From a virus: a DNA stretch of 41,630 bases. The stretch is from IMG/VR virus record IMGVR_UViG_3300033172_000005; one strand, 5' to 3'. Both the position numbers and the translations under genes were made by a program. The first letter of the stretch is position 1; every line of letters starts with the position of its first letter. The notes below the pieces were generated by a model that did no database searches, was not told where the DNA came from, and worked only from the letters and a program-made list of their open reading frames with translations. Shown here in pieces: positions 17,089 through 35,734 of the stretch.

Positions 17089-17104
17089 GGCAGCCCCCTC
17101 ATCT

Positions 17105-17341: not shown

Positions 17342-17363
17342 CACGCTCCGCACCCGTCGCTCA

Positions 17364-18323: not shown

Positions 18324-18326
18324 CGT

Positions 18327-19977: not shown

Positions 19978-20340
19978 CTATTGCCCCTTCACCGCCAGCG
20001 TCAGCGTCCGCGTCGCATCCTGATTCACCGCGCTCGCCGCCGTGCCGCTGCGCACCTTCAGCCAGCGCACGCCCTCGAAGTTGGCGCCGGCGTCGAACAC
20101 GATGTAGCGGCTCGCCGCCGCCGAACCGCCCACCTCGTTGCCGCCGTCGTCGTACAGGTCGGCGTACGTCTCCCCATCCGCGCTCGCCTGGAACGTCAGC
20201 CCCGCCGCCGTCCACGCGCTCGGCATCTGGATCCCGACCAGCCGGCCCCCCATCAGGTCAACCGCTGCGCTCAGACTGGCCGTCCCCAAAATCGTCGCCG
20301 TCACTGTCTGCAGAGCCGGCTGGTACGTGATCCCCATCAT
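19978..20340 (-). CDS. Hypothetical head-associated protein (120 aa).
   Basis: ATG start, tight spacing, lies between the capsid and connector genes. Confidence 0.6.
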   Translation of the reverse strand: MMGITYQPALQTVTATILGTASLSAAVDLMGGRLVGIQMPSAWTAAGLTFQASADGETYADLYDDGGNEVGGSAAASRYIVFDAGANFEGVRWLKVRSGTAASAVNQDATRTLTLAVKGQ

Positions 20341-20347
20341 CCGCTCC

Positions 20348-20962
20348 TTACACCGACGCGCTGAACGGCGTCGCCTCGCTACCCGTCGCCGCGCCCGTCA
20401 CATGCACCCACCATTTGCCGGCCGCCACGTCGATCAGCTCCGCACGAGCGCCCGCCAGGCCGCCCTGCGTCGACCCGTCCCAGTTGATCCGGTCCGAATC
20501 GGCCGCCGTCTCGAAACCGACCACGCTGTCGCCGCCGTCCGCCGCCATCAGCGCCACGCCCTGCATCACGTCCGCCGTGCCGGCCACGCTGATCGTCGTG
20601 CTGCCGCTGCCGATAGGCGCCGTCTGCAACAGCGTGAAGTGCGCGCCGGTCCCCGTCGCCGCCGGCAACGTCACCGCCACGCCCACCGTGCCGCTCAATG
20701 CCACGATGCGCCCGTCGTGCGCATCCGCCGTCAGCGCCAGCGCCGCCGTCCCGCCGTGGTTCACCACCCGGCCCGACATGTCAGCCGCCCGGTTGATCTC
20801 ATCCGCCGTCGCCGTGATCGCAACGCCCGCCAACTTCAGCGCGCCGCCGCTCTCGACGTCCAGTTCGCCGCCGCTCTCGATGTCCAGTTGGCTGCCCGAT
20901 TGCACCACCAGGCGCAGCGAGCCCTGCTCTCGATATACACCCGCGTTGTAGCTCATCCTCAT
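20348..20962 (-). CDS. Hypothetical head-associated protein (decoration or fibre candidate, 204 aa).
   Basis: G/T/A-rich with the tandem octapeptide QLDIESGG/ELDVESGG, encoded by 24-bp tandem copies at 20842..20889. The ATG at 20956 has better SD spacing than the one at 20962. Confidence 0.6.
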   Translation of the reverse strand: MRMSYNAGVYREQGSLRLVVQSGSQLDIESGGELDVESGGALKLAGVAITATADEINRAADMSGRVVNHGGTAALALTADAHDGRIVALSGTVGVAVTLPAATGTGAHFTLLQTAPIGSGSTTISVAGTADVMQGVALMAADGGDSVVGFETAADSDRINWDGSTQGGLAGARAELIDVAAGKWWVHVTGAATGSEATPFSASV

Positions 20963-21025: not shown

Positions 21026-21475
21026 CTACGCCTCGCTCGGGCTGATCACGAGCTCATCGTCGGCCACGCTCGCCGTCCCCTGCGTCAACGGCAGGCTGCG
21101 CGCGCCGTAGCGGATCGCAATCGTGTCGCCGAACGCAATGTTCGCAACCGCGCTGGTCAACACGCCCTGCACATACCGCTCCAGCGGCTTGTACACGTCC
21201 ACGATCAGCAGCCGGTCGTTCAGGTCGTCGTTCGCCGCCGAGGTCACCACCGCGCTCCCGCCGGCCACCGCCGCCATGCCGCTGTCGCTGTTGATCGTGT
21301 TCTGCTCCACCGTCAGCGCCGCAACGCCCGTCTGCGCCGAGTCCGTGATCGGCGTAATGAATACCACGCCCTCGAACCCGCTCATGTCCAGGATCTCGCT
21401 GTTATCGTCCGTGCTGCTCGCCGCCGCAATCGGCGAGTTCACATGGTCGATTTTCACACTCGTCAAGAAGTTCAT
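21026..21475 (-). CDS. Hypothetical head-associated protein (149 aa).
   Basis: ATG-initiated ORF directly downstream of the major capsid gene. Confidence 0.6.
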   Translation of the reverse strand: MNFLTSVKIDHVNSPIAAASSTDDNSEILDMSGFEGVVFITPITDSAQTGVAALTVEQNTINSDSGMAAVAGGSAVVTSAANDDLNDRLLIVDVYKPLERYVQGVLTSAVANIAFGDTIAIRYGARSLPLTQGTASVADDELVISPSEA

Positions 21476-22826: not shown

Positions 22827-23687
22827 TTACTCCAACTCAGCCAGTTGCAGGCCCCGCGCCCTGCGCCGCGCCCGCTCCATCTTCAACCGATCCGCCTCTG
22901 CCTCATCCCCATCCGTCTCAGACCACCCCGGCCACGTCCGCATAGCCGCCGGCAGGCTCACCCGATACCGCTCCTCCAAGGCCGCCAGCAGTTTCGGCGT
23001 CAACTGTCCCTCCGCCGCCATCCGCTCCGCCTTCAGAATCGCCGCCCCGGGCGTCGCCCCGTCGTATACCGCCGACACCTCCGCCAGCCGCGCGTCCCGG
23101 ATCTCCACCGTCGCCAGTTGGGTCCGCACTACGCCGTCCTCTTCCCGCTCATACTCCAGCCCCGCAAAATGCGGGCATTCAAAACTCAGATAATTGCGGC
23201 CGCAGATGTCGCACACCCAGCGCCCGCCATAGAACCCCACCGACACGTCGTGCACGATCCCGCTGCGCACGCCGGCGATGAAATCGTTTGTGTTCACGCC
23301 CGCCAGCCGCAGCCCCGCCAGCGTGAAAAAATCGGCCTCGACGACCGTTTCCTCGCCGCTCTCTCGCACCTCGCCCGTCAGCGACCGGCCCAGCGGCATC
23401 TCGTGCCAGCGATGCGAGTTCTGGAACGACACGCCCTCCGCCGCCGCCCGCGCGAAATTCGCCAGCGTGCTCGCCGCCATGTGCGTGTAGTACGCATCCA
23501 GCCGCGACGAGCTGATCTCCGCCCGCCAGAAAAACGGGTCCGACTCGTCGAACACCGCCGGGTCATACGCGCTCTGCTCCCGCGCCATCTGCAACAGCGC
23601 CTCCGCCCGTTCGCCCCGCACGGCCGCCGCCCGCGCCGCATGCGCATGCACCACCCGCTCAGTCTCCATCTGACTATTGCTCCTCAT
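22827..23687 (-). CDS. Prohead maturation protease (HK97/S78-like) with a Cys-rich insertion.
   Basis: FQNSHRWHEMPLG and DVSVGFYGG are His- and Ser-containing motifs. Lies between portal and capsid. An alternative start ATG at 23669 (METERV) sits behind an AGGAG SD. Confidence 0.7.
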   Translation of the reverse strand: MRSNSQMETERVVHAHAARAAAVRGERAEALLQMAREQSAYDPAVFDESDPFFWRAEISSSRLDAYYTHMAASTLANFARAAAEGVSFQNSHRWHEMPLGRSLTGEVRESGEETVVEADFFTLAGLRLAGVNTNDFIAGVRSGIVHDVSVGFYGGRWVCDICGRNYLSFECPHFAGLEYEREEDGVVRTQLATVEIRDARLAEVSAVYDGATPGAAILKAERMAAEGQLTPKLLAALEERYRVSLPAAMRTWPGWSETDGDEAEADRLKMERARRRARGLQLAELE

Positions 23688-24891
23688 TCGCCGGCTCCTC
23701 GCCCGCCGCCGTCATGTTCATCGGCGTCAGGTACTCGTCCCCGCCCTCGATCTCGTCCATGTTCTCCAGCTTCCGGATATCGTTGGCGCTCATCCAGCCC
23801 CACTGCCGCGCCACCGCATACGCCTGATAGCGGCTCATCGTGTCCCCGCGCAGCAGACCCTCGACCAAATGTTCGGCGTAAAATCGTTTCTGCTCATTGG
23901 CCGTCAGCAGGTCCCGCTGGATCGCCTGCTCGAACCGCACCAGCCACGGCCGCACCGTGTCCGTTACGAACTCGATGGCCTGGTGCTCGATGTTGGAAAA
24001 TGTGGCCTTGTCCAGCAGCCCGATTTTGTGCGGCGGCATGCGGTAGATGCGGGCGATCTCCTCCGCCTGAAACTGACGCGTCTGCAGGAACTGCGCCTCT
24101 TCCGGCGGCACGCTCAGCGTCTCCACCGTCATCCCCTCCTCGAGGATGCGGATGCGATGCGCCTGGCTCAGCCCGCCGTGCTCTTCCTGCCACGACCCTT
24201 TCAGCCGGTCGTACGCCTTGTCGCTCAGCGCGCCCGGGTGCTGCAGCACGATCCCCGGCCTGGCCCCGTTGCCGAAAAAACGCGCGCCGTATTCCTCCGT
24301 CGCCAGCGCCAGACCCACCGCCTGCATCGCCGTGCGCACGGGCGAATAGCCCACCAGCCCGTCGCCGCTCAGCGTGCGCACATGGTGCACCTGTTCCCGG
24401 CGAAGCTTCACCGTGCTGCCGTCGCCCGGCGCGTACTCATACTCCACCTGCCCGCGCACCCGCCGCACCGCCATCCGGTCCGGCCGCAGCGGCCACAGCT
24501 CCGCCGTCTGCCCGCTGCCGTTGCGCACGATCTCTGCGTACGCATTGCCCCACAGGCACAGGCTCGCCGTCATCATCTCGCGGAACTCCATCGCCGTCTG
24601 TTCCGGGTTCGGCTGCGTGTGCAGAATGCGGTACAGCGGATGATTCTCCGCCCGCGCCTTCCCCCGCGTCTGGCGCTGATAGACGATCAGCGGCAGGCTG
24701 GCGACCGTCTCGCTCAGCACGCGCACGCACGCGTACACCGCCGGCAGCGCCAGCGCGCCCTCTTCCGTCACCGTCACCCCGGCGTATGTGGAGGCGCTCT
24801 GCAGGCCGAACAGCCGCGCCCAGTCCGCATCCTGGCTCGGATGCGTCCGCCTGCTCACCTCGCCCAACAATCTCGCCGTAAAACCGGTCAT
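23674..24891 (-). CDS. Portal protein, HK97 family.
   Basis: LPAVYACVRVLSETVASLPLIVYQR...NHPLYRILHTQPNPEQTAMEFREMM...WGNAYAEI matches the HK97-type portal pattern. The ATG at 24891 (MTGFTARL) is chosen because the longer TTG start at 25008 would overlap the promoter and terminator. Confidence 0.88.
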   Translation of the reverse strand: MTGFTARLLGEVSRRTHPSQDADWARLFGLQSASTYAGVTVTEEGALALPAVYACVRVLSETVASLPLIVYQRQTRGKARAENHPLYRILHTQPNPEQTAMEFREMMTASLCLWGNAYAEIVRNGSGQTAELWPLRPDRMAVRRVRGQVEYEYAPGDGSTVKLRREQVHHVRTLSGDGLVGYSPVRTAMQAVGLALATEEYGARFFGNGARPGIVLQHPGALSDKAYDRLKGSWQEEHGGLSQAHRIRILEEGMTVETLSVPPEEAQFLQTRQFQAEEIARIYRMPPHKIGLLDKATFSNIEHQAIEFVTDTVRPWLVRFEQAIQRDLLTANEQKRFYAEHLVEGLLRGDTMSRYQAYAVARQWGWMSANDIRKLENMDEIEGGDEYLTPMNMTAAGEEPANEEQ

Positions 24892-25007: not shown

Positions 25008-25036
25008 ACTATACGTCGGTGGCGTTAAACTGTCAA
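25008..25036 (-). promoter_or_regulatory. Near-consensus sigma70 promoter TTGACA-N17-TATAGT directed at the portal/structural operon.
   Basis: On the minus strand, TTGACA is at 25036..25031, the spacer is exactly 17 nt, and TATAGT is at 25013..25008. Confidence 0.7.
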
Positions 25037-25133: not shown

Positions 25134-25313
25134 GGAGGTAGGAAAAACGATACGGACTCGGACGAACCGAGACAGGGCCTAGCAATAGGCGAACCGGGGA
25201 GGACCCGCCAGACCGCCAGAACAACGGAGGTTGATAGACCAGGAGTCAGCGGCAACCGAGCCGCTCTGATGATTGGCCGAATCCGAGGCCGAAACTCCAG
25301 AAGGGAGAATACG

Positions 25314-25616
25314 ATGAACAAGGCAAGCTATTTCGTCCGCGTGGACACCTATTGGGCTTGGGCGCCCGACTATTTCGTCGGGCCGTTCGCCAGTCGAGAC
25401 GCCGCACAGGCGGCGATCGACGAGGCGCTGAGCGCCAGCGGCGGGCTGGCGCAGATGGCGTACAACCTCTCGCCGGATGTCTGGTCCGGCGTGCGCATCC
25501 ACGGCATTCTGTCACGCACCGCTGCACGGCGCAGCGGCATGCGTGATGACGACCAGATCAGCCGCATTCCTCTGAATGCCGACGATCTGGCCCGCCAGAT
25601 TGAGGAAATTTTCTAA
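25314..25616 (+). CDS. Hypothetical protein (100 aa), first gene of the opposite-strand cassette.
   Basis: ATG at 25314 behind a GAAGGGAGAA SD. Well-composed sequence (MNKASYFVRVDTYWAWAPDYF...). Confidence 0.65.
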   Translation: MNKASYFVRVDTYWAWAPDYFVGPFASRDAAQAAIDEALSASGGLAQMAYNLSPDVWSGVRIHGILSRTAARRSGMRDDDQISRIPLNADDLARQIEEIF

Positions 25617-25668
25617 TCGCACCCCACGCCTGCCGGTGGGCGTAATCACCGGCAGAAAGGGAATTACG

Positions 25669-25938
25669 ATGAAACTCACAACCGCGGAGGTTTTCGCCCT
25701 CGCTCGCCTCGTTAACGAGGCGAGCATAGGGTTGGACGGCACGAAAGTGCACGCTGCTGTCCACATTGCGGATAGTGCCGAAGCGCGGCACTATCCGCAC
25801 GTCGCCGAGGCAAGAGATCGCCTCGGCGATGAATGGGTGCTCATTGTCTGGTCGGAGGGCGAGCCGACGAAGGTAACGCCCTCCGACCAGACAATCGGGG
25901 CGGCCACAATGGCCGCCCTTATGGGGGCCGACCTATGA
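25669..25938 (+). CDS. Hypothetical protein (89 aa).
   Basis: ATG at 25669 behind a GAAAGGGAA SD. Its initiation region is nearly identical to that of the preceding gene. Confidence 0.6.
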   Translation: MKLTTAEVFALARLVNEASIGLDGTKVHAAVHIADSAEARHYPHVAEARDRLGDEWVLIVWSEGEPTKVTPSDQTIGAATMAALMGADL

Positions 25939-26612
25939 CGTACTACGTAGAGGCAGAGATGCTGGGTGACAGCGCCACCAACGCCGCCGCCCGGCGCATG
26001 GTAGAGTTGCTGCAAGAGCGCGGTGTTGACGCCGCGCTCGGAAGCCCGCTGCAATATGACCACGACCCGGACGAATGCCCCGACGCCGTCTGGGAGCAGT
26101 GCCTGGACGTTATCGGTATCGAGGCGACGGTACGCGCGTTCACCGTCGCCTTCATCCAAAGCCGGGGATGGCAGTTAGGCCAGACCATCCCCGGCCTAGA
26201 CGCCGCCATCGTCGAAGCCGCGCCGCCCCCGGCGCTCGCCGGCGACCTGCAGCCGCAAGATTGGCTGCAAATGGCGCTGTACGGCGCGGGCCTCGTGGAC
26301 GCCGACCCCGGCGAGATGCGCGACGTGTGCCAGAGCCTCGCGGAGTGGCTATTCGCCGTGCCCGGTGAATCGGCCTACGCCATCCCGGACGCATGGACTG
26401 CCAGCCCGATGGGTGCGCTGTGGTGGGCGGCGCTGGTGCGCGCCGAGGGCGACGCGCTCGTCACCGTGGCCGAGGCCGCGCGTCTGGCGGGCGTCAGCGT
26501 CAAGACGCTCAGCAAGCGCATCGACCGCGGCGCGCTGCGCGCCTACGTCGATCCGTCCGCCCCCGCGCGTCAGGGGCGGCGCCTAGTGCGGCGCAGCGAC
26601 GTTGCGCCGTAG
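25935..26612 (+). CDS. Protein with a C-terminal excisionase/MerR-type HTH (225 aa). Candidate Xis/RDF or late regulator.
   Basis: The C-terminus LVTVAEAARLAGVSVKTLSKRIDRGALRAY...RRLVRRSDV fits the excisionase-family HTH pattern. ATGA overlap with the previous gene. Confidence 0.65.
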   Translation: MTYYVEAEMLGDSATNAAARRMVELLQERGVDAALGSPLQYDHDPDECPDAVWEQCLDVIGIEATVRAFTVAFIQSRGWQLGQTIPGLDAAIVEAAPPPALAGDLQPQDWLQMALYGAGLVDADPGEMRDVCQSLAEWLFAVPGESAYAIPDAWTASPMGALWWAALVRAEGDALVTVAEAARLAGVSVKTLSKRIDRGALRAYVDPSAPARQGRRLVRRSDVAP

Positions 26613-26630
26613 CCGCCCGCGACTCCTAGC

Positions 26631-26656
26631 GCCCCAGGCATCGCGTCTGGGGCTTT
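26631..26656 (+). terminator. Hairpin plus short T-run at the convergence of the plus-strand cassette and the leftward unit.
   Basis: GCCCCAG 26631..26637 pairs with CTGGGGC 26647..26653, then TTT. The U-tract is weak. Confidence 0.35.
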
Positions 26657-26658: not shown

Positions 26659-26772
26659 TCATCTTCGCCTCAACCACGCCCGGACCTGCACCCACGCCGC
26701 CCAGGCCGCCAACCCGACCAGCAGGAAGACGACCCCTCTGTCCGCATCCCACTGCGCCGCCAAATTGTCCAT
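26659..26772 (-). CDS. Micro membrane protein (37 aa), not in the ORF track.
   Basis: MDNLAAQWDADRGVVFLLVGLAAWAAWVQVRAWLRRR: one transmembrane helix with a basic tail. Translated by hand. Confidence 0.4.
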   Translation of the reverse strand: MDNLAAQWDADRGVVFLLVGLAAWAAWVQVRAWLRRR

Positions 26773-26773
26773 A

Positions 26774-26932
26774 TCACTCCCCGTCCGGCCCCAGCAACCG
26801 CACGATGTCCAACTCCACCACATGCCGCCCGCGCCGCAGCTCCAACACCCGCGTCTCCGGGTAAAACCGCCCCATCAACGCCCCCATATGGTCCCGCACA
26901 TCCACCGCCGCCGTCCCGCCGGTCCACGTCAT
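26774..26932 (-). CDS. Small soluble protein (52 aa).
   Basis: MTWTGGTAAVDVRDHMGALMGRFYPETRVLELRRGRHVVELDIVRLLGPDGE. Its ATG overlaps the upstream TGA (TGATG). Confidence 0.4.
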   Translation of the reverse strand: MTWTGGTAAVDVRDHMGALMGRFYPETRVLELRRGRHVVELDIVRLLGPDGE

Positions 26933-27102
26933 CACCGCCTGGCGATTCGTTCCCTCCGCCCCTTCGCCCATGCAGTCCCCATCCCCGCCGTAAACAACAC
27001 GACGCCCGCAAACAGCGCCGTCGCCTCCCAGCCGAACCAGCCGTACAACGCCGCGCTCACCGCCAACAGCCCCACCACGATCAGCCAATCCCCGCCGTCC
27101 AT
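26932..27102 (-). CDS. Micro membrane protein (56 aa, two transmembrane helices), not in the ORF track.
   Basis: MDGGDWLIVVGLLAVSAALYGWFGWEATALFAGVVLFTAGMGTAWAKGRRERIARR. A GGGGGCGAG SD follows the GT2 stop. The overlapping track ORF frame is G/R/V-rich junk. Confidence 0.5.
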   Translation of the reverse strand: MDGGDWLIVVGLLAVSAALYGWFGWEATALFAGVVLFTAGMGTAWAKGRRERIARR

Positions 27103-27111
27103 CTCGCCCCC

Positions 27112-27798
27112 CTACGGCCTATGCTCCACCACAACCAGCGGATCCGCCCAAATCCCGAACCCCCGCGCCCGCGCCATCCGGCACAGACCCCGGTCCACCT
27201 CCGCCGCCGTATACCGGCAGCCCGCCCGCAGCACCTCCGCCCGCATCAACAGCGTTCCGCCCACCGTCTGCATCTTCACCAGGTCCCGCCCATAGCGCCG
27301 CCCCAGGTCGAACCGCCCGAACGCCGGCACGCCGCGCCCGTCTTCCGTGCTGAACGCCCAGATGTCGTAGAACACATTGCCCATAAACACGAACGGCGCA
27401 ACCAGGTCCGCCCCCGGCCGCTCCAGATCATCTGCCAGCCGCTGCAGCATATCCGCCTCATACACGATGTCGCTCGGCAGCATCAGCACATAATCCGACC
27501 AGCCCAGGTCGACCGCATCCATGCCCGCATTATACACCGTCGCCAGCGTCGCAAACCGCTCCGCATTCACCACGCTCCCATAATGCGGCGCGCCCGTATC
27601 GCAGCGCACCACCCGCCAGCGCGGATCCCAACACGCCTGCTCTTCCAGCCGCGCCCGCGTCCCGTCCGCGCTGTCGCCCTCCACCGCAACCACGCGCAGC
27701 GCCTCCCACTCCCACGCCAGCCCGTCCACCCGGTCCGCAAACGCCTCGACCCGCCCCTCGCAATCGCGGAACGGCGCAACAATCGTCACATTCCCCAT
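27112..27798 (-). CDS. Family-2-like (GT-A fold) glycosyltransferase, 228 aa.
   Basis: VTIVAPFRDCE...VVAVEGDSADGTRARL resembles the GT2 N-terminal signature (xDxSxDGT). LPSD acidic motif. No transmembrane segment. Confidence 0.7.
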   Translation of the reverse strand: MGNVTIVAPFRDCEGRVEAFADRVDGLAWEWEALRVVAVEGDSADGTRARLEEQACWDPRWRVVRCDTGAPHYGSVVNAERFATLATVYNAGMDAVDLGWSDYVLMLPSDIVYEADMLQRLADDLERPGADLVAPFVFMGNVFYDIWAFSTEDGRGVPAFGRFDLGRRYGRDLVKMQTVGGTLLMRAEVLRAGCRYTAAEVDRGLCRMARARGFGIWADPLVVVEHRP

Positions 27799-27799
27799 A

Positions 27800-27874
27800 T
27801 CACTCTCCCAAACACGCTAGCCACACGGCCAAAACCATCACGATCATCGCCCACATCGCCTGGTCGAACGTCAT
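27800..27874 (-). CDS. Micro hydrophobic peptide (24 aa), not in the ORF track.
   Basis: MTFDQAMWAMIVMVLAVWLACLGE. Its ATG directly abuts the acyltransferase TAG. Its stop lies 1 nt before the GT2 ATG. Confidence 0.35.
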   Translation of the reverse strand: MTFDQAMWAMIVMVLAVWLACLGE

Positions 27875-28357
27875 CTAGTCCCCCCATCTGATCAGCCCGC
27901 TGGAAGTCACCCTCCCCACGAAACGGGGTTGCGGCGTGAGTTCCCGCGCCGGATTCCCCGCCACGATGGCGAACGCCGGCACATCGCGCGTCACCACCGC
28001 CCCCGCGCCCACCAGCGCCCCGCGCCCGATGCGCACCGGCAGCAGCACCGCCCCGCTGCCGATGCTCGCCCCATCCTCGATCACCGTCCGCAAATGCCCC
28101 GGCGCGCCTTCCGTCGAGGGCCGCTTGTCGTTCGTCGTCATCACCCCATGCCCGATGAACACCCCGTTCCCCACGCGCACCCCCGCGCACAGAAACGTGT
28201 GGCTCTCGATCTTGCAGCCCTCGCCGATCTCCACATCCTCCTGGATCTCCACGAACGGCCCCACGAACGTCCCCGCCCCGATGAAACACCGGTACAGGTT
28301 CACCAGGTCAGGGAAGGGGATCCGCACCCCCTCCCCCAGCACGCAGTTCTCAATCAT
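27875..28357 (-). CDS. Hexapeptide-repeat (left-handed beta-helix) acyl/acetyltransferase, 160 aa.
   Basis: Repeated [LIV]-G-x4 turns: IGEGCKIESHTFLCAGVRVGNGVFIGHGV...IEDGASIGSGAVLLPVRIGRGALVGAGAVVTRDVPAFAIVAGNPAR. ATGA overlap with GT4. Confidence 0.8.
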   Translation of the reverse strand: MIENCVLGEGVRIPFPDLVNLYRCFIGAGTFVGPFVEIQEDVEIGEGCKIESHTFLCAGVRVGNGVFIGHGVMTTNDKRPSTEGAPGHLRTVIEDGASIGSGAVLLPVRIGRGALVGAGAVVTRDVPAFAIVAGNPARELTPQPRFVGRVTSSGLIRWGD

Positions 28358-29556
28358 CCCTGATCCGCCAACTCCGCAATCACCGGCTGCCAGTAATCCT
28401 CCACCACCCTGTCCCAGCCGTACTCCTCGTGCGCCCAGCGGCTCGCCTCCCGCCGCAGCGTCATCGGCCAACGCCCGCCCTGCAGCGCCCAATCCTCATA
28501 CAGCCGCTCCAGCGCCGCCTGCATCCCCCGCCAGTCCGGCCAACTCCACCAACATCCCAGATGCGACCAGCACAGATCCGCCGGCGCAACCCGCTCGCCC
28601 CACATCACCAGCTCGCTCATCGACGCGAAATCCGTCGTCACCACCGGCGTGCCGCACGCCTGCGCCTCCAGGATCGGCAGGCCGAACCCCTCGCTCTTCG
28701 ACCCCGCAATCAGCGCATCCGCGCAGTTATACAGGGCCACCATCACGTTCTCCGGGTAACCCATCCAGTACTGGCGCTGGTCGGCAAACACCACCCGATC
28801 CAAAATGCCCAGCTCCCGCGCCAGCTCCGTCAGGTCATAACCGCCGAACCGCGTCCCCGCCTCCGTGTGCACATACAGCCGCGCCTGCGGCTTGCCCGCA
28901 GCGAAGGCCGCCCACGCCCGCAAATTGCCTTGAAAATGCTTGCGGTCGTCGCTGCCCTTATTCGCCGCCACCATCAGCGTCAAATGCTCCACGCCGGGGA
29001 ACCACTCCTCCCGCCAGTGCGCCCGCTCCGCCTCGTCCAGCACGCGGAACGTTTTCGGCTCCACCCCGTGCGGCACATACAGCGCCCGCTCTACGCCCGC
29101 CTTGTGCAGCTCCTCCAGCCCCCAGCGGCTGTACACCAACGGCCTGTGCGCCGTATCCAGCGCCGCCCGCACCCGCGCCGCCACCGGCGCCCCGTCGACG
29201 GGGAACCACGGCAGCCACTTCGCCGGCGCAACCCGCTCCCCCACCCCGTGTTGCGTCCACACGTCGATCAGCGTAATCACCGCGTCCGCCTCGAAATCCC
29301 GCGCGTACGCCCCGATCATATCCGTCCCGTACGGCTGCGCCCCTGCCGGATAAACCCTGAACCCGTCCACCATCATCGAACCGCCGGCAAGTCCGAACCA
29401 GGCAAACATCGCCACATTCTCACGGCCGCCCACCTCCGGCAGCGCCGCCAGCCGCGGCAGCAAATGTTTGCCCTGCGTTCCGTATCCGGTCGACACCCAA
29501 AAACCATTTGAGGAGTACAGGATCCTCAGCCCCTTCCGCCCTTCTCCGTTCGCCAT
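28354..29556 (-). CDS. GT-B fold, family-4-like glycosyltransferase, 400 aa.
   Basis: E-x7-E motif in SKSEGFGLPILEAQACGTPVVTTD. ATG at 29556 (MANGEGRKGLRILY) behind a GAGGA SD. Confidence 0.8.
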   Translation of the reverse strand: MANGEGRKGLRILYSSNGFWVSTGYGTQGKHLLPRLAALPEVGGRENVAMFAWFGLAGGSMMVDGFRVYPAGAQPYGTDMIGAYARDFEADAVITLIDVWTQHGVGERVAPAKWLPWFPVDGAPVAARVRAALDTAHRPLVYSRWGLEELHKAGVERALYVPHGVEPKTFRVLDEAERAHWREEWFPGVEHLTLMVAANKGSDDRKHFQGNLRAWAAFAAGKPQARLYVHTEAGTRFGGYDLTELARELGILDRVVFADQRQYWMGYPENVMVALYNCADALIAGSKSEGFGLPILEAQACGTPVVTTDFASMSELVMWGERVAPADLCWSHLGCWWSWPDWRGMQAALERLYEDWALQGGRWPMTLRREASRWAHEEYGWDRVVEDYWQPVIAELADQG

Positions 29557-29578: not shown

Positions 29579-30508
29579 CTATCTGCTGAATTGCCAAAGG
29601 GCTGAAACTCGCCCCATATCCCACGCAGCCGCCATCTGCCGGCGCAGCTTCTCCTCAACCTGCTCCGCGCCTGCTTCCGAATACCATTGCAGAGCTGCCC
29701 CGTCCCGATCTGTCAACACATCCAGCAAAATGCCGTAGCGCAGCGCCGCTTCGATGTACGGTTCCGGCGTATACCATTCGTTATTTCCGCTGTTGTGCGT
29801 TACGTGCGGACGCACGTTCCGCTCTGGCGCTTCCGCATATATGTCATCTATTGTTTCGTAATCTTCAGGGTATCCGCCCCACACCTCAGCCTGCTCAGCC
29901 GATGTTGGTTCCGGCCCAGAAGCCCACGCCGGCAGCGGTTGCGGTTCGGGCTGGGACAGCGGTACAACCGTCCGCTTACCGATGTTCTCCGTGTTGATCG
30001 TGTAGGTTGTGCCGTTGCGGGTGGCTTTGATCTTATCTGGGCGTTGCATCTTGCCCACTGAGCAGGATGCAAACTCGGCAAACCAACGGGAAAGAGTCTG
30101 CCGCGGGATCATTGTGTGGCGGGCAATTTCGCTCTGACCCTTGCCAAACCATTCAGGATCAAAATAGATGCGTTGGGCGATCTTCTTCAGATCGGCACTG
30201 TTACGCCGCAGCCCATAATCTCGATTCGCACCCAACGCCCACCACTGAGCATCGCGCTTTGTCCCATGGTGTAGTTCGGCGGGAAAGACCATCAATCCGG
30301 CATAATCTCGCGCCGCTGTAACGCGATGAAAACCATCCGCCAACCAGTAAGTAGAGCCGTCGAAGAACACCACCACGGGCGGAAACTGTGCGCCGTCTTT
30401 CATGGCCGCGGCATACTCGCCAACAACGATCATGTCGAGCTGATAACGCGCTTGTATATCTTCATCAAGCACAATGGATCTGAGTTCTATTTCTTTCATT
30501 TCGTTCAT
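29579..30508 (-). CDS. ParB-like nuclease domain plus HTH protein, with a truncated Dam-type methyltransferase start at the C-terminus.
   Basis: FFDGSTYWLADGFHRVTAA is the ParB/Srx DGxHR motif. GQSEIARHTMIPRQTLSRW is an HTH. NNEWYTPEPYIEAA resembles an MTase N-terminus, but no (D/N)PP(Y/F/W) follows. Lower GC by eye. Confidence 0.7.
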   Translation of the reverse strand: MNEMKEIELRSIVLDEDIQARYQLDMIVVGEYAAAMKDGAQFPPVVVFFDGSTYWLADGFHRVTAARDYAGLMVFPAELHHGTKRDAQWWALGANRDYGLRRNSADLKKIAQRIYFDPEWFGKGQSEIARHTMIPRQTLSRWFAEFASCSVGKMQRPDKIKATRNGTTYTINTENIGKRTVVPLSQPEPQPLPAWASGPEPTSAEQAEVWGGYPEDYETIDDIYAEAPERNVRPHVTHNSGNNEWYTPEPYIEAALRYGILLDVLTDRDGAALQWYSEAGAEQVEEKLRRQMAAAWDMGRVSALWQFSR

Positions 30509-30825
30509 CGCGCTTGCACCGCATAGTTCTCAATTGTTGCAATCTGATTATCGTCATACACATCCGACAGTTGCCGTTTGAACTCGAAATACCTGTCGCC
30601 GCTCTTTTTGTCACGTAGTCGCTTCGCGGCCTCATGCACAATCGCATGGCAGTTGGGGCAGAGATAGACAAGATTCTCAGGCCGGTTCACGCCATCCCGA
30701 CTCACAGGGATTACATGGTGTAGGCGCAAAATGGAGTGAATCCAGAAGCCGCAAATCTCGCATTCGGACCCTTGGGCGAGCGTCGCCTTGCGCCATTTCA
30801 TTGCTTCGTATCGAATGTTATTCAT
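30505..30825 (-). CDS. HNH endonuclease (106 aa).
   Basis: CEICGFW...LHHVIPVSRDGVNRPENLVYLCPNCHAIVH gives the HNH and zinc-finger motifs. ATGA overlap with the ParB-like gene. Lower GC by eye. Confidence 0.85.
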   Translation of the reverse strand: MNNIRYEAMKWRKATLAQGSECEICGFWIHSILRLHHVIPVSRDGVNRPENLVYLCPNCHAIVHEAAKRLRDKKSGDRYFEFKRQLSDVYDDNQIATIENYAVQAR

Positions 30826-30974: not shown

Positions 30975-31166
30975 CTACTCCTCCCCGTCCTCCTCGAAGC
31001 CGAGCGTCATTCCGCAATTCAGCACCCGCGCCGCCAACCGGATCAACCCCTTCGCCAGCCAAATGCGCAGCTTCAATTCCCGCAACCGCGTCACCCGCAC
31101 CTTGACGACCAACCTGCTCCCCCGCATCAACGCCACGCTATTGACCGTCACCGTCTTCTTCCCCAT
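30975..31166 (-). CDS. Small hypothetical protein (63 aa).
   Basis: Internal ATG (MGKKTVTV...) of track ORF 30975..31250. Composition is plausible. Confidence 0.4.
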   Translation of the reverse strand: MGKKTVTVNSVALMRGSRLVVKVRVTRLRELKLRIWLAKGLIRLAARVLNCGMTLGFEEDGEE

Positions 31167-31578
31167 CCCTCTCCCCCCTCGCCAGCCGCAACACCGCACG
31201 TCGCGCCGCATCCTCATCCTCATACCGCCCGTAAAACTCCCACCCCGCACGCGGCCGCCGCTGCACCAACACCTCCGTGCGCTCCTCCGGGTTCACCCGA
31301 AACCGCGCCAACCCGCTCCCCGGCTGCGCCTCCACCGTCACACCGTCACCCTCCTCAACGCCATGCGCCACAACCGAAACCTGCATATCCGACAGACCCA
31401 CCGCCAACAACTGCGCCGTCGCCGCCGCCAGCGCCTCGCTCGACGACGGCCACACCTCCACCCTCACCCGCAGCACATCGTTGGCAGCGCCCTCGACCGT
31501 GATCCGCTGCACGTTCATCGGGTCCAGACCCAACGCCTCGCACGCCATCAGCCCCCACACACGCCCCGATTCCGCCAC
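31138..31578 (-). CDS. Hypothetical protein (146 aa) downstream of terL.
   Basis: ATG ORF with ordinary composition. No recognisable motif. Confidence 0.55.
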   Translation of the reverse strand: MAESGRVWGLMACEALGLDPMNVQRITVEGAANDVLRVRVEVWPSSSEALAAATAQLLAVGLSDMQVSVVAHGVEEGDGVTVEAQPGSGLARFRVNPEERTEVLVQRRPRAGWEFYGRYEDEDAARRAVLRLARGERDGEEDGDGQ

Positions 31579-31618: not shown

Positions 31619-33172
31619 TCATAGCTCCCGCAACCCCCGCTCCTCGTACACGCTCGCCGACTCCTCGTTGCGCACCGCCCGGTCCAGCGCCATCACCGCC
31701 GCCACGATCCCATCGATTTTCTCCCGGCTCTTCCCCTTGTTCGGCTTCACGTTCCCCGCCGCGTCGATGTCCACCGTCACATTGTCCGCCATCCAGCGCA
31801 GCACCGGGTGCCCGCCGTGCATCAGCCCGTGCGCCAACACCAGCCGCAGCAATTCCTTCGTCGGATGGCTCATGCTCGCAAACCCCTGGCCCATCTGCAC
31901 CATCTCGAACCCCGCGCCCTCCAACAACTGCCGCACCATCTCCGCGCCCCAACGGTCGAAGGCGATCTGCTCGATCTTGTACCGTTGCCCCAGCGCCTCG
32001 ATATCGCGCAGGATCACCCCGTAGTCGATCACGTTGCCCGGCGTCGCCGTCATATACCCGTCCCGCACCCAGGCGTCGTACGGAACCCGGTCCTTGCGCA
32101 TCCGCTCCGTCAGCGTCTCACGCGGCGTCCAGAAAAACGGCAGCAGATAAAACGGCTCATCCTCCCGCTCCGGCGGAAACGCCAGCACAAACGCCGCAAT
32201 ATCCGTCGTCGACGCCAGGTCCAACCCCCCGAAACACCGCCGCCCCGCCAGCTCCGGCAGCGCCCCGTCGCACGCATCCCATGCCGCCATATCCAGCCAC
32301 CGCTCATCTTGCGAGGTCCACTGATTTAAATGCAGCCTCCGAAACGCATTCTGATACGCCGGCGACGCCTTCGCCCGCGCGCACTGCTCCCGCAGATACT
32401 CTTCAGAAATCGTCACCCCCAGCCCCGGGTTCGCCTTCGCCCACGTCGCCGGGTCCGTCCAGTCGTCCCCCTCATCCGCCGCCGCGATGAAGGCGAAATA
32501 GCTCGGGTCCTCCACGATCCCCGCCAGCACCTGCCGCGCATACTCGTGCTGCTCCCAACACACGCTCGTCCGGTCATACCCCGCCGTCGTAATCATCACC
32601 ATCAACGGCTGCCGCCGTGCGCCCGTCGAGGTCGTCAACACGTCGTACAACTCCCGATTCGGCTGCGCGTGCAACTCGTCGAAAATGATCCCGTGCGCGT
32701 TCAGCCCGTGTTTCGTAAACGCGTCCGCGGACAATACCTTGTACGAAGAGCGTGTCTTCGGCGCCACAATGCTGTTGCGATACGCCAGCGCCCGCCTGCT
32801 CAACTCCGGCGACTCCTCCACCATGGCCCGCGCCTGGTCGAACACGATCCTCGCCTGCTCCCGGTCCGCCGCCGCGCTGTACACCTCCGCCCCGGCCTCC
32901 CCGTCCGCAAACAGCAGATACAGCGCAATCCCGCTGCTGATCGTGCTCTTCCCCTGCTTGCGCGGGATCTCGATATACGCCGTCCGGTAGCGCCGCGACC
33001 CGTCGCGCCGCATCCAACCGAACAGCGGGCGCACGATCTCATCCCGCTGCCACTCCTGCAGTTTGAACGGCTCCCCGGCCCACTCGCCCTTCGTATGCCG
33101 TAGAAACCGCTCGAAAAAGCCGACCGCACGATCAGCCGCCCCTGCGTCGTACCAGTACTCGCTAATTGCCAT
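31619..33172 (-). CDS. terL: Terminase large subunit.
   Basis: Walker A-like IEIPRKQGKSTISSGIAL, then a Terminase_1-type body (FDELHAQPNRELYDVLTTSTGARRQPLMVMITTAG) and a C-terminal nuclease region (IDGIVAAVMAL). Confidence 0.92.
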   Translation of the reverse strand: MAISEYWYDAGAADRAVGFFERFLRHTKGEWAGEPFKLQEWQRDEIVRPLFGWMRRDGSRRYRTAYIEIPRKQGKSTISSGIALYLLFADGEAGAEVYSAAADREQARIVFDQARAMVEESPELSRRALAYRNSIVAPKTRSSYKVLSADAFTKHGLNAHGIIFDELHAQPNRELYDVLTTSTGARRQPLMVMITTAGYDRTSVCWEQHEYARQVLAGIVEDPSYFAFIAAADEGDDWTDPATWAKANPGLGVTISEEYLREQCARAKASPAYQNAFRRLHLNQWTSQDERWLDMAAWDACDGALPELAGRRCFGGLDLASTTDIAAFVLAFPPEREDEPFYLLPFFWTPRETLTERMRKDRVPYDAWVRDGYMTATPGNVIDYGVILRDIEALGQRYKIEQIAFDRWGAEMVRQLLEGAGFEMVQMGQGFASMSHPTKELLRLVLAHGLMHGGHPVLRWMADNVTVDIDAAGNVKPNKGKSREKIDGIVAAVMALDRAVRNEESASVYEERGLREL

Positions 33173-33205: not shown

Positions 33206-33736
33206 CTATTCCCCGCCCACATGCCGCGTCGTTTCATCGCACGGATTCCGCGGGACCCACGTAACCCACTCATTTCCGTCATATTCGGCCGGGAAATACA
33301 CATTGCGTTCCGTCCATGCCGTGAACGGCGCCGCCTGTGCATAGCCGTATCCGGCGTCTATCTCCTTATCCAGACTCGCCGTGTCCTTGATAGCGAGATA
33401 GATGATGTCTCCCCACGTCTCCCCCGCTCTGCTCAGCGCCTCCTCGATCATCTCTCGCAGCGTCGTCATAAAATCGTCATCCATTGCATCGTTCTCCTTG
33501 CTCTGCTCAGTAGCCAACCGCCGCTCGTCGTCTAACTCCGCCACCAACCTATCGATCATCTCCACGTCCTTGGGCTGAAGCAGGCTCTCTATCTCATCCC
33601 GCGGGAACCGATCCCAAACCAACGTCGCAACCAGTCCCCGCAGATACATCATCTGCTCATCCAGCCTCTTAAGGCGTTCGTGCAGAGTGAATTGCTCCAC
33701 CGGCTTTTGCGCTCCGGTCCGTTCCTCGCCGCTCAT
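33206..33736 (-). CDS. Hypothetical protein (176 aa).
   Basis: ATG ORF, ATGA-coupled to the upstream gene. Acidic helical N-terminal half. Confidence 0.6.
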   Translation of the reverse strand: MSGEERTGAQKPVEQFTLHERLKRLDEQMMYLRGLVATLVWDRFPRDEIESLLQPKDVEMIDRLVAELDDERRLATEQSKENDAMDDDFMTTLREMIEEALSRAGETWGDIIYLAIKDTASLDKEIDAGYGYAQAAPFTAWTERNVYFPAEYDGNEWVTWVPRNPCDETTRHVGGE

Positions 33737-34152
33737 GGCAGTGTCCTCATGTACTTGCGCACATCCACCCGCTCGCTGTAATAACCGTTCGACCTCCTGC
33801 CCTCACGAATTACCCATCTATCCATCGCGCTCGGTTCCGGCCTCTTCGGCCTCTTCAAATCTACCCCGCTCGCGCTCGGTTCCGGCCTCTTCGGGACGAT
33901 CCTGTCCTCGTCGATCGGCGGCGCGTCAGGGATGCGCGACCATATGCCGTCCGTCGCCGTGACGCTCTCGTGCCCCATCCCCCAGCGAAACCACAGGCCT
34001 CGCCGGTACGGCAGAACCTTCATCGCAGTCGGCTCGTCGAATCGCACAATCGCATCCCCCACATCGCCTACATTGCGCATCACTGCGCTCCCGACAAACC
34101 AGTACCAGCCCGGCTCCGTTGGCATATTCGCACTCCAGTAAGCGCGCGTCAT
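33733..34152 (-). CDS. Hypothetical protein (139 aa) with the duplicated KRPEPSA motif.
   Basis: ATG at 34152 (MTRAYWSANMPTEPGWYWF). ATGA coupling on both sides. Confidence 0.55.
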   Translation of the reverse strand: MTRAYWSANMPTEPGWYWFVGSAVMRNVGDVGDAIVRFDEPTAMKVLPYRRGLWFRWGMGHESVTATDGIWSRIPDAPPIDEDRIVPKRPEPSASGVDLKRPKRPEPSAMDRWVIREGRRSNGYYSERVDVRKYMRTLP

Positions 34153-34331
34153 TCCGTCGCCTCCTCCCATGCCTCTAGCGCCTGCACAGCCGTGAGCGCG
34201 CCGTCCGGCGCGGCGCTGGCGTGCGTCACGACGCGCACGGCGCACCAGTACACGATCTGGCGCGGCATGTGCCACGCCAGCCACATGGCGAGTCGCGTGC
34301 GCCAGTCGGGTACGTAGCGGCGGCGCGTCAC
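34149..34331 (-). CDS. Small membrane protein (about 60 aa).
   Basis: GTG at 34331 behind a GGAGGTGA SD, GTGA-overlapping the upstream stop. Contains RLAMWLAWHMPRQIVYWCAVRVV. Confidence 0.5.
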   Translation of the reverse strand: MTRRRYVPDWRTRLAMWLAWHMPRQIVYWCAVRVVTHASAAPDGALTAVQALEAWEEATE

Positions 34332-35056
34332 GGCGTCACCTCCACGCGGCGCAACGCCGCGGTCTCTAGCCACGCATTCTGCGCGGCCTGGGCGGCCTGG
34401 GCGGCCTGGGCGGCGGCATTCTGCGCGGCCTGGGCGGCCTGGGCGGCCTGGGCGGCGGCATCGGCGGCGGCCCTGGCGGCCCAGGCGTCACTGGCGGCAT
34501 CGGCGGCGGCCCAGGCGGCCCAGGCGGCGGCATCGGCGGCCCAGGCGGCCCAGGCGGCCCAGGCGGCGGCATCGGCGGCCCAGGCGGCCCAGGCGGCGGC
34601 ATCGGCGGCGGCATCGGCGGCCCAGGCGTCACTGGCGGCGGAGCAGGCGGCCCGCAATGACTCATCGCCCGTCTCCAGGTAGTCGCGTACCACCTGCGGC
34701 GCGCACCACAGGCCGATCACCTGCAACGCGCACCAGCGCGCGAACTCGCGCAGCAGCGCATCCGTCTCCGCTGCGGACAACATGGCGACGACCGTGCGCT
34801 CGCTGGCGACGTATTTGTCAGCGTCGCGCATGATTGTGCCGCCGAGCGTGACGCGGCACAGCGCCGAGATGGACGGCGCGTATTTGAGCGCGTCCATGAC
34901 GTGCTCGCAGGCGTGCAGGCCATGGACGCATAGCTCTATGACGCCGTCCACCGTCAACGTCTCGCCGACGCGCACCTCGCGCCCGTCGCCATGTGCCAGG
35001 CGCGGCGTGCCGTCATTGTCCACGGGGCAAAAATGCCAGTAGTAATAGTCGGTCAT
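34328..35056 (-). CDS. Protein with a globular N-domain and a C-terminal Ala/Trp/Gln repeat array (242 aa).
   Basis: MTDYYYWHFCPVDNDG...GLHACEHVMDALKY... is followed by AAWAAWAADAAAWAAWAAWAADAAAW...AAQAAQAAQAAQNAAAQAAQAAQAAQNA. ATGA coupling to the upstream gene. Confidence 0.7.
   Translation of the reverse strand: MTDYYYWHFCPVDNDGTPRLAHGDGREVRVGETLTVDGVIELCVHGLHACEHVMDALKYAPSISALCRVTLGGTIMRDADKYVASERTVVAMLSAAETDALLREFARWCALQVIGLWCAPQVVRDYLETGDESLRAACSAASDAWAADAAADAAAWAAWAADAAAWAAWAAWAADAAAWAAWAAADAASDAWAARAAADAAAQAAQAAQAAQNAAAQAAQAAQAAQNAWLETAALRRVEVTP
34374..34650. repeat. Coding 9-bp-unit repeat array: GCGGCCTGG units, then GCGGCCCAG units.
   Basis: A 42-bp unit occurs twice at 34374..34457. 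Variable GCATCGGCGG(C)-CCCAGGCGG blocks then run to about 34650. Confidence 0.85.
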
Positions 35057-35277
35057 TCCGTCACCTCCTCCAGCAGCTCCGTCAACGCATCCGCCACGGC
35101 CATAATGTTCGCAATCGCCTCCTCCGCGCCGTCCGTGCGCTCGCCGGCAATCTCGCACCACTGCGCCGCCGTGCACAGCCGGAGGCGCAGCTTCTCCGCC
35201 TCCGTCCATGGGGCCCCAGTCCCCGCGAAAAACTCCGCCCACTCCTGCTCTCGTTTTGCCTTCTCCGCATCGTTCAT
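35053..35277 (-). CDS. Small acidic protein (74 aa).
   Basis: ATG at 35277 (MNDAEKAKREQEW) behind an AGGAGGAG SD, directly after the terS stop. Confidence 0.6.
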   Translation of the reverse strand: MNDAEKAKREQEWAEFFAGTGAPWTEAEKLRLRLCTAAQWCEIAGERTDGAEEAIANIMAVADALTELLEEVTE

Positions 35278-35287: not shown

Positions 35288-35734
35288 CTAGTACCCGAAA
35301 AAATCATCGGCGTCTTCCGGCTCCGCCACGCTCAGCCTGGCCCGCGCCGAGGCCGTCAACCCGAACTGCATCGCATACGATCTGAATGCCGTGCTGTTGT
35401 CCCGCAGCACCTGCAACAATGGATGCTTCCTCGTCAGCCCCCGCTCATCCGTCGTCGTCAGCCCATCCTGTTTCAACTGTTTTGCCGCCCGTTCCGCCAG
35501 CGCATAATGTGTCGCCATCATCGCCAGCGCCGGCCCGTCCACCTCCGTCGCCACACCCAGCGCCACAAGCCGCGGCACATGCTCCCGCCAAAAGCGCCGC
35601 GCCTCCGTCAGCATATTGCGCGGCATCTTCGGCTCCCTGGTCGGCGGCTTCGGCTCCCCGCCGTTCAGCGTCCGCTTGCCCGGGTTCCCCTCCAACACCT
35701 TCAGCGCCGTGGGCTTCGGCGGCCTCCCCACCAT
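35288..35734 (-). CDS. terS: Terminase small subunit (P27 family-like).
   Basis: MVGRPPKPTALKVLEGNPGKR...EARRFWREHVPRLVALGV...DGPALAMMATHYALAERA matches the P27-family pattern. An HNH gene lies upstream. Confidence 0.85.
   Translation of the reverse strand: MVGRPPKPTALKVLEGNPGKRTLNGGEPKPPTREPKMPRNMLTEARRFWREHVPRLVALGVATEVDGPALAMMATHYALAERAAKQLKQDGLTTTDERGLTRKHPLLQVLRDNSTAFRSYAMQFGLTASARARLSVAEPEDADDFFGY

Follow-up and report, generated by a model that had tools for sequence, protein, structure and literature searches.

Experimental demonstrations of glycosylated phage particles are limited to a few mycobacteriophages. Che8, Corndog, and Myrna attach glycans to the subunits of their capsids and tail tubes with transferases of their own, and Che8 gp110 and Corndog gp38 are essential for virion glycosylation (Freeman et al. 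2023, as cited in PMC12363180, PMC11600133, and PMC11256854). The Corndog genes gp35-38, which encode a TylF-like O-methyltransferase and three glycosyltransferases (GTs) of the GT-A type, are located between the portal gene gp34 and the protease gene. In Che8, whose terS and terL open the left end of the genome, gp108-110 encode a GT2-TylF fusion (gp108), a GT2-like protein, and a GT25-like protein, and lie at the right end beside the HNH gene gp112. In this study, we analyzed a cassette (positions 26659 to 29556) that encodes a GT4-family glycosyltransferase, a left-handed beta-helix (LbH) acetyltransferase, and a second glycosyltransferase with a GT-A fold, in virus record IMGVR_UViG_3300033172_000005. 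The whole stretch of 41,630 nucleotides (nt), referred to here as the window, is a 41.6-kb temperate siphophage genome of 67% GC with genes that run mainly leftward. By analogy with the mycobacteriophages, virion-protein glycosylation is the best reading of this cassette, one that we hold with slightly less than even confidence.

Three coupled enzymes between terL and portal

The large terminase gene terL (31619 to 33172, minus strand; Pfam TerL_ATPase, 3.5e-32, and TerL_nuclease, 3.8e-49) and the portal gene (23674 to 24891, minus strand; open reading frame [ORF] to 25008, ATG at 24891; Pfam Phage_portal, 1.1e-120) are separated by 6,728 nt, measured from the terL stop (31619) to the portal ATG. 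In 73 IMG/VR contigs with a terL 52 to 96% identical to that of the window and a portal gene downstream, the median gap was 36 nt; it was 300 nt or less in 65 contigs and exceeded 1 kb in three. A preliminary description, made from the sequence alone, had pointed out that terL normally lies directly before portal and that about 6.7 kb separate the two genes here. Given the median of 36 nt in relatives, the arrangement in the window is more than chance.

Read leftward, the cassette consists of GT4 (28354 to 29556), LbH (27875 to 28357), a hydrophobic ORF of 24 amino acids (aa; 27800 to 27874), GT-A (27112 to 27798), and ORFs of 56 aa (26932 to 27102), 52 aa (26774 to 26932), and 37 aa (26659 to 26772), all on the minus strand together with terL. 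GT4 starts at an ATG at 29556, with GAGGA ahead of it. Reading the junctions from the sequence revealed ATGA between GT4 and LbH, TAGATG between LbH and the 24-aa ORF, TGAtATG between the latter and GT-A, a gap of 9 nt before the 56-aa ORF, TGATG between the 56-aa and 52-aa ORFs, and TGAtATG before the 37-aa ORF. The genes from GT4 to the 37-aa ORF are translationally coupled in one leftward unit with terL, and the ATGA, TAGATG, and TGATG junctions recorded earlier were found where they had been placed. The GC content at third codon positions (GC3) of the cassette, 0.84 to 0.90, is the same as that of terL and portal, which argues that the cassette has long resided in this phage. Transmembrane segments are absent from all three enzymes.

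The 400-aa GT4 protein is the conserved anchor of the module. It matched Pfam Glyco_trans_1_4 (1.1e-13; 52.1 bits against a cut-off of 27), Glycos_transf_1 (5e-12; 46.1 bits against 26.4), and phrog_2170 (1.8e-33). Its C-terminal domain contains the E-x7-E motif EGFGLPILE, in which both glutamates, E289 and E297, were invariant in 36 homologues. An AlphaFold2 model with a predicted local distance difference test (pLDDT) score of 93.3 displayed the two-Rossmann-domain GT-B fold. In a Foldseek comparison, MshA was closest (E of 2e-17), followed by sucrose-phosphate synthase, the chlorovirus NY-2A protein 3oy2, BshA, and PimB; PimA and PglA were also among the nearest structures. By its family matches and its model, the protein is predicted to be a retaining, nucleoside diphosphate (NDP)-sugar-dependent transferase, which bears out the GT-B/GT4 assignment that had been based on the E-x7-E motif.

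The LbH protein, 160 aa long when counted from the ATGA-coupled methionine, matched Pfam Hexapep over two stretches (3.9e-19; 67.9 bits against a cut-off of 27). Its best matches in the PDB were the WxcM-like 4mzu (4.4e-21), the Helicobacter N-acetyltransferase 7s43 (5e-20), and QdtC (3fs8, 1.7e-17), followed by 3mqg (1.5e-16), with GlmU and sugar or xenobiotic O-acetyltransferases behind at 1e-12 or worse. These top matches N-acetylate nucleotide-linked 3-amino sugars. The window protein resembles QdtC, WlbB, and FdtD (3fs8, 3mqg, 4mzu, and 7s43) in its small size, its hexapeptide core, and a TNDK-P-S segment in the active-site region (TNDKRPS in LbH and TNDKQPRS in 4mzu). Because its closest structures are nucleotide-amino-sugar N-acetyltransferases, LbH more likely prepares a donor sugar with an acetamido group than adds O-acetyl groups to a completed glycan. 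The preliminary description was correct in naming a left-handed beta-helix acyltransferase, but the acetylation of an already built glycan that it envisaged is better replaced by N-acetylation of a nucleotide-linked amino sugar. No equivalog threshold was reached in NCBIfam, where the best match was the NeuD/PglB/VioB subfamily (71.8 bits against a cut-off of 160.8). Enzymes of the QdtC/WlbB/FdtD type belong to bacterial pathways for O-antigen or S-layer glycans, and their substrate is made by an aminotransferase and an isomerase encoded alongside them. In contrast, no aminotransferase, isomerase, or dehydratase partner was found among the approximately 40 window ORFs that were scanned (not every small ORF among them), so the LbH substrate would have to be supplied by the host.

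The GT-A protein (228 aa) passed the cut-off of Pfam Glycos_transf_2 modestly, with 33.4 bits against 23.3, and some of its 113 homologues also match the Anp1 (GT62), CAP59 (GT69), or Glyco_tranf_2_4 models. Invariant residues include E-G-D42-S43-x-D45, D110, D145, W147, D202, and H226; D110 is located within P-S-D, not in a canonical DxD. D42, D45, D110, and H226 are candidate nucleotide- or metal-site residues. The AlphaFold2 model (pLDDT, 97.2) showed a GT-A Rossmann-like fold, for which Foldseek returned COLGALT1, Mnn9, and PcManGT at an E of about 1e-12 and TM-scores of about 0.72 to 0.75. LH3 and giant-virus GT-A proteins were further structural neighbors, the top neighbors spanning TM-scores of about 0.72 to 0.80. 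COLGALT1 (GT25), Mnn9 (GT62), and the giant-virus proteins are only 14 to 17% identical to the window protein, a likeness at the level of the fold alone, and therefore no CAZy family can be assigned. The earlier designation as GT2 was right in that the protein is a glycosyltransferase, but it is good only as a generic name for the GT-A fold. Pfam searches with all three enzymes and structure prediction for GT4 and GT-A, which were among the checks originally proposed for the cassette, left them within glycosyltransferase or acetyltransferase families.

Recurrence in phage structural modules

The terL-GT4-portal arrangement was also found at loci L004, L007, L104/L105, L110, L111, L113, L124, and L128. 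The search for the same insertion point in related phages that had been suggested thus gave a positive answer, and the arrangement is, judging from these loci, recurrent in the lineage and not a private insertion. The closest relative of the window head module is L128, with a portal, major capsid protein (MCP), and post-MCP protein 63, 59, and 66% identical, respectively.

All three enzymes recurred together at 51 to 66% identity and in three gene orders. In L172, terL is followed by GT4-LbH-GT-A (51, 61, and 57% identical, respectively), a 53-aa ORF similar to the 56-aa ORF, and portal. The order in L171 is terL (72% identical), LbH, a 91-aa ORF, GT-A, a GH25 lysozyme, and GT4, with identities of 66, 51, and 60% for LbH, GT-A, and GT4. 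L148 contains GT4-GT-A-LbH, a mini-ORF, and portal. L005/L006/L101 and L091 belong to a different capsid lineage and have GT4-LbH-GT-A in their head-tail joining region. LbH homologues that adjoin GT4 in L171, L172, L091, and L005 were 56 to 66% identical to the window protein. The trio has stayed together although its genes were rearranged and passed between lineages, which strongly indicates one functional module.

Relatives of GT-A (30 to 33% identity) without GT4 were observed downstream of the capsid gene in L015, L016, L025 (about 230 nt after the MCP gene), and L024, phages whose terL is 67 to 70% identical to that of the window. A separate observation concerns d149, a 149-aa ORF located right after the window capsid gene (21026 to 21475). 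Its homologues were found only in the GT4-bearing L111, L124, and L128 and not in the GT4-less L024, L037, and L083, which have enough downstream sequence. As a candidate acceptor, d149 was set aside, since the sample is small and phylogenetically confounded and the protein belongs to no annotated family.

The GT4 clade comprises at least 1,745 representatives at 50% identity (E of 1e-30 or less), and 835 clusters at 90% identity (E of 1e-5 or less) were obtained among the candidates scored. An alignment-based scan detected GT4 relatives in 232 IMG/VR contigs; scanning IMG/VR with the single GT4 protein as the query returned no match. Among genomes representing 185,579 species (one genome each), only four matches were found, all on contigs of metagenome-assembled genomes (Caldilineaceae, Anaerolineales, Neisseriaceae, and Saccharibacteria). 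Judged by these counts, GT4 anchors a large, almost phage-only clade.

Neighboring genes were counted at about 70 non-redundant GT4 phage loci. Upstream of GT4, Phage_HCP head-completion genes (26), capsid genes (12), and TerL (6) were encountered, along with scaffold and terS genes. Downstream, GT2 genes (20), radical S-adenosylmethionine (SAM) genes (10), some with B12 or SPASM domains, and several SAM-methyltransferase families were found, together with GT17, GT34, Anp1, CAP59, and NDP-sugar epimerases or dehydratases; gp10-like, tail-completion, and head-completion genes come next. According to these neighborhoods, members of the clade reside within modules for the head, the neck, or packaging, and these modules represent at least three capsid lineages. 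Fusion to a SAM methyltransferase of the FkbM type or of class I was seen in several GT4 homologues (among L135, L139, L140, L142, and P0104), and an intein interrupts the homologue at L133 (1486 to 3684). At L170, the stretch with the GT4 match also contains a gene for a B12-binding radical SAM protein.

Cultured phages contain more distant GT4 relatives (25 to 36% identity). In Microcystis phage Mae-JY09 the gene directly follows the MCP gene, and Pontimonas phage phiPsal1 displays the order MCP-GT4-methyltransferase-GT2-neck. Synechococcus phage S-CBS4 carries its relative after portal, with a methyltransferase gene, and Tetrasphaera phage TJE1 upstream of terL, with nucleotidyltransferase, kinase, epimerase, and methyltransferase genes. 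The clade also occurs in phages whose records or descriptions call them lytic. A phage-restricted GT4 anchor combined with variable tailoring enzymes in a structural module appears to be undescribed in the literature that we searched. Where phage glycosyltransferase genes are noted in genome papers, they have been attributed to DNA protection or superinfection exclusion.

The small ORFs of the cassette differ in their conservation. All four have a GC3 of 0.80 to 0.91 (0.80, 0.91, and 0.84 for the 24-, 52-, and 37-aa ORFs, respectively) and G-rich Shine-Dalgarno-like leaders, as in the surrounding genes. The 24-aa ORF fills the gap between LbH and GT-A; it is not conserved and was absent from that position in L172, L091, and L005. 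Neither it nor the soluble 52-aa ORF nor the single-transmembrane 37-aa ORF, which is the last gene of the leftward unit, had a homologue among the 173 loci compared. A hidden Markov model of the 56-aa family, built from nine copies and giving no match in a reversed-sequence control, detected this two-transmembrane mini-protein beside portal in the GT4-positive L004, L104, L110, L111, L113, L128, L148, and L172. It also matched at the terL-portal junction of the GT4-negative terL relatives L074, L083, L023, L031, L021, and L024. Because it is present in relatives without GT4, the 56-aa ORF is, by this comparison, a real gene that belongs to the junction rather than to the glycosylation cassette. 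For the same reason, we rejected the idea that it tethers GT4 to the membrane. The micro membrane ORFs that the preliminary description counted as part of the cassette are thus present and coupled, but the 56-aa ORF is not specific to glycosylation.

Target of the glycan

We propose that GT4, the only transferase in many relatives, most likely transfers the initial sugar to the acceptor, with a host NDP-sugar as the donor. The GT-A enzyme, metal-dependent in type with its conserved aspartate and C-terminal histidine, would add a further sugar, and LbH would use acetyl-CoA to N-acetylate a host-derived nucleotide-linked amino sugar, yielding an acetamido-sugar donor. The acceptor is most likely one or more virion proteins modified during assembly, in an analogue of the mycobacteriophage system that employs unrelated enzymes. 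The analysis shows the families and folds of the enzymes, their coupling, their conserved co-occurrence, and their placement in structural modules; that the genes are transcribed late, in which order the enzymes act, which donor sugars they use, and most of all what they modify is inferred. Taken as a whole, this explanation, in which the three enzymes constitute a genuine, co-expressed, cytoplasmic glycan-building module of the late (virion) gene set that acts on virion proteins, strikes us as nearly an even call, slightly on the doubtful side. A virion target is favored by location in structural modules across lineages, by confinement of the clade to phages, by the link to late genes, by enzymes that are soluble and have no flippase or polymerase beside them, and by close analogy with the only validated system. 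Virion modification had been ranked first before any comparison was made, and the position of GT4 in head, neck, and packaging modules, at about 70 loci and in cultured phages, adds comparative support to that ranking.

Several observations weigh against a virion target. GT4 sequences are conserved from end to end in phages whose capsid families are unrelated, a pattern that a shared acceptor outside the capsid would explain at least as well as a capsid protein would. In this lineage, accessory genes in general collect at the terL-portal junction (AcrVA2-like and Cas_VVA1548-like genes in L004; HNH, ParB-like, and reverse-strand genes in the window), and the position of the cassette could therefore reflect tolerance of insertion and not function. 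The GH25 lysozyme inside the L171 trio hints at a cell-wall link, and no aminotransferase that could make the LbH amino sugar was found among the scanned window ORFs. A common C-terminal acceptor motif was not seen on capsid and tail-tube proteins of GT4-bearing phages. In Che8 and Corndog, the MCPs and major tail proteins end in TGS, DGS, VGS, and GDS, and this G/D-Ser terminus may be an acceptor signature of their system; the window MCP ends in KLG and its tail tube in PIT, neither with a C-terminal serine. The window enzymes showed no homology to Che8 gp108-110 (BLASTP E, 0.12; hhalign probability, 0.4%), Corndog gp36-38 being compared by Pfam family type only. Finally, a tblastn search with GT4 against 50,697 phage records matched no mycobacteriophage.

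Part of this evidence suits modification of the host envelope, which we consider an unlikely explanation although the best of the others. Under it, the cassette would decorate a membrane-associated glycoconjugate such as a lipid-linked O-antigen, a teichoic-acid precursor, an S-layer glycan, or a glycolipid. The suggested benefits would be to mask the receptor, to block superinfection, or to stop progeny from adsorbing to debris. The phage is temperate, with tyrosine integrases at 1598-2560 and 39467-40492 and a cI-like helix-turn-helix (HTH) gene. Lipid-linked acceptors at the inner leaflet are common substrates of GT4 enzymes, and PimA/PimB and PglA are among the nearest structures of the window protein. 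Small membrane ORFs are translationally coupled in the unit, L171 has its lysozyme within the trio, whole-length conservation across capsid lineages fits a common cellular acceptor, and genome notes in the literature often suggest such a role for phage glycosyltransferases. However, no flippase (GtrA or Wzx), polymerase, or membrane-anchored glycosyltransferase was found, the enzymes lack transmembrane segments, and the sole conserved membrane ORF, the 56-aa ORF, is also present in relatives without the transferases. The clade is nearly absent from the 185,579 species genomes and common in viral contigs, including phages described as lytic. The contrast between 232 IMG/VR contigs and four matches in the species genomes argues against a role in lysogenic conversion.

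One form of such conversion, the Gtr seroconversion of P22 and Shigella phages (gtrABC and O-antigen acetyltransferases), resembles the window in combining a temperate phage with a transferase and an acetyltransferase. Gtr systems require the flippase GtrA, a bactoprenol GT2 bound to the membrane, and a polytopic GtrC; they adjoin int/att, as seroconversion genes usually adjoin integrase or immunity genes. These hallmarks were not found for the window: Pfam, PHROG, and NCBIfam gave no match to GtrA, GtrB, or GtrC. The terL-portal gap ORFs had no match to GtrA, Wzx/Wzy, or sugar-nucleotide synthesis families in Pfam, PHROGs, or NCBIfam, nor did any of the approximately 40 scanned ORFs, in agreement with what had been read from the sequence at first. 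The cassette is located in the packaging/head unit, 24 kb from the left integrase and 11 kb from the right one, inside the late unit and not beside integrase or immunity genes. By these searches and by its position, it is not a Gtr-type seroconversion module.

It is less probable still that the three genes are accessory (moron) enzymes with another cytoplasmic target, glycosylating a host protein or signalling nucleotide in anti-defence, or making a soluble glycoconjugate, from an insertion-tolerant junction. Unrelated inserts crowd the terL-portal and terS-terL junctions, with Acr-like genes in the same gap of L004, and a faint Pfam GT4-conflict match was obtained, but at 18.9 bits it remained below the cut-off of 26. 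PADLOC gave no match for any of the three enzymes, and their assignment to defence or anti-defence was dropped. In the majority lineage, moreover, GT4 is located between head-completion and tail genes in the company of glycan-tailoring enzymes and without defence-related genes.

Glycosylation of modified DNA bases at packaging, often suggested in genome notes and in keeping with the adjacency to terL and with the T4 alpha- and beta-glucosyltransferases, phage GT-B enzymes that modify DNA, is very improbable. No dCMP/dUMP hydroxymethylase, thymidylate-synthase-like, or other base-hypermodification family was found in the scanned window ORFs, GT4 is of the ordinary E-x7-E type closest to MshA, BshA, and PimB and not to DNA glucosyltransferases, and an amino-sugar N-acetyltransferase with a second, GT-A enzyme points to oligosaccharide building. 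Judged by the ORFs scanned, the cassette is not a DNA glucosylation system, which the preliminary description, having seen no hydroxymethylase-type gene, had also judged less likely.

Returning to virion glycosylation, we consider it possible, with less confidence than for the window cassette itself, that GT4 marks a phage-restricted glycosylation island of structural modules by which many environmental siphophages decorate their virions with short, variably methylated, N-acetylated glycans. It is similarly conceivable that virion glycosylation is widespread and has arisen independently from unrelated enzymes, and is not a peculiarity of mycobacteriophages; cultured hosts of the clade include Cyanobacteria and non-mycobacterial Actinobacteria, and several host phyla are represented. 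If virions are the target, glycan coats would be common on phages in soil, freshwater, and marine systems, with consequences for adsorption, stability, grazing, immune recognition, and phage therapy. If the host envelope is the target, the clade would represent a new, flippase-independent route of surface remodelling late in infection. The cultured members Mae-JY09, S-CBS4, and TJE1 make the question of the target directly testable.

Flanking genes and comparison with known systems

Between terL and GT4, three further minus-strand genes were located. An orphan ORF of 146 aa (31138 to 31578; GC3, 0.82) lies right after terL, with the Shine-Dalgarno-like leader GGAGGGAGG; it had no match in Pfam, PHROG, NCBIfam, or PADLOC and no homologue among the 173 loci. 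It is followed by an HNH endonuclease gene (30505 to 30825; Pfam HNH, 8e-11; GC3 of 0.60 against 0.84 to 0.90 in neighboring genes) and a ParB-N-like gene (29579 to 30508; phrog_1033, 6e-12 over residues 6 to 140; GC3, 0.61), whose stop is 22 nt ahead of the GT4 start. The C-terminal half of the ParB-like protein had no Pfam match, and its interpretation as a truncated DNA-methylase start, based on an EWYTPEPY motif, was dropped for want of Pfam support. The two genes form a low-GC patch (29579 to 30825), where relatives have only an ORF of 42 to 84 aa. The low GC3 of about 0.60 and the small ORF in relatives identify the patch as a recent insertion between terL with the 146-aa ORF and GT4. 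The terS gene (35288-35734) and terL are also split, by 2.1 kb with three ORFs (33206-35242), one of them with DUF7666. The whole packaging module of the window phage is studded with inserts.

At the other end of the cassette, a reverse block of three plus-strand ORFs (115, 120, and 259 aa; 25269 to 26612) interrupts the late operon. The 259-aa ORF encodes a MerR/excisionase-like HTH protein (phrog_2474, 7e-8; TIGR01764, 0.0014). A 52% identical homologue is found at the same relative place and in the same orientation in L004 (block at 11822-13866 of that locus), adjoined in the L004 terL-portal gap by the AcrVA2-like and Cas_VVA1548-like family matches. The block and its L004 counterpart suggest an anti-defence or regulatory islet at the junction. 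Between the convergent units lies a GC-rich hairpin (26615 to 26653; folding energy, -22.6 kcal/mol), a possible but weak terminator with a z-score of -1.8 and no T-run. Just upstream of portal, a sigma-70-like promoter match (25008 to 25036, minus strand; TTGACA-17-TATAGT, 11 of 12 positions, a consensus match only) would fit head-gene transcription restarting after the reverse-strand block.

The remaining structural genes of the window encode tail fibres, tape measure, major tail protein, neck proteins, HK97-type capsid, and protease. The three proteins encoded after the MCP gene map to 21026-21475 (d149), 20348-20962, and 19978-20340, and the tail tube to 13958-14359. Between the head-completion and neck/tail-completion genes, region 15260-18692 contains the lysis genes (an N-acetylmuramidase gene and two transmembrane ORFs), an S8 subtilisin-family peptidase gene with a signal-like N terminus, and a 121-aa ORF; the GT4 module of other lineages occupies this same head-tail joining hot spot. 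The left end harbors the lysogeny genes, comprising the cI-like HTH gene, a tRNA-Val gene, and the left integrase. The tRNA-Val prediction (1477-1555) is unusually long (79 nt) and abuts that integrase. No attR-type repeat of its 3' end was found in the window, and a 16-nt match to this end inside the tape-measure gene is probably due to chance and was rejected as an att site. The second integrase lies near the right end of the window, as does a NUMOD4/HNH_3 homing-type endonuclease gene (40420-41244). No near-identical DNA to the window was present in the 50,697 phage records.

Taken one by one, the cassette proteins are ordinary members of GT4, of the QdtC/WlbB-like LbH enzymes, and of the GT-A fold. 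The window GT4 resembles MshA, BshA, PimA/PimB, SdgB, and the chlorovirus transferase (3c4q, 3mbo, 3oka, 7ec6, and 3oy2) in its GT-B fold, E-x7-E motif, and size. However, its identity to known GT4 structures is only 10 to 20%, and it falls into a separate phage-restricted clade with invariant N-domain residues of its own. The known enzymes act on inositol-phosphate, malate, phosphatidylinositol, and serine-aspartate (SD)-repeat proteins, which gives no guide to the acceptor of the window protein.

The Che8 and Corndog cassettes are similar to the window in that two or three tandem phage transferases of about 200 to 400 aa are located in or beside the packaging/head module, and the methyltransferases of Che8 gp108 and Corndog gp35 parallel the methyltransferase fusions and neighbors of GT4 relatives. 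They differ in their enzymes: the mycobacteriophages employ GT-A types only (GT2 and GT25-like) with a TylF-like O-methyltransferase, whereas the window combines a GT-B enzyme of GT4, a different GT-A protein, and LbH, and no O-methyltransferase was found among its scanned ORFs. Compared by homology, methyltransferase, and acceptor terminus, the window cassette is not a member of the Che8/Corndog system. Of the systems compared, the mycobacteriophage virion-glycosylation cassettes are nevertheless the ones that it most probably functions like, with glycosylation of the window virion as the prediction.

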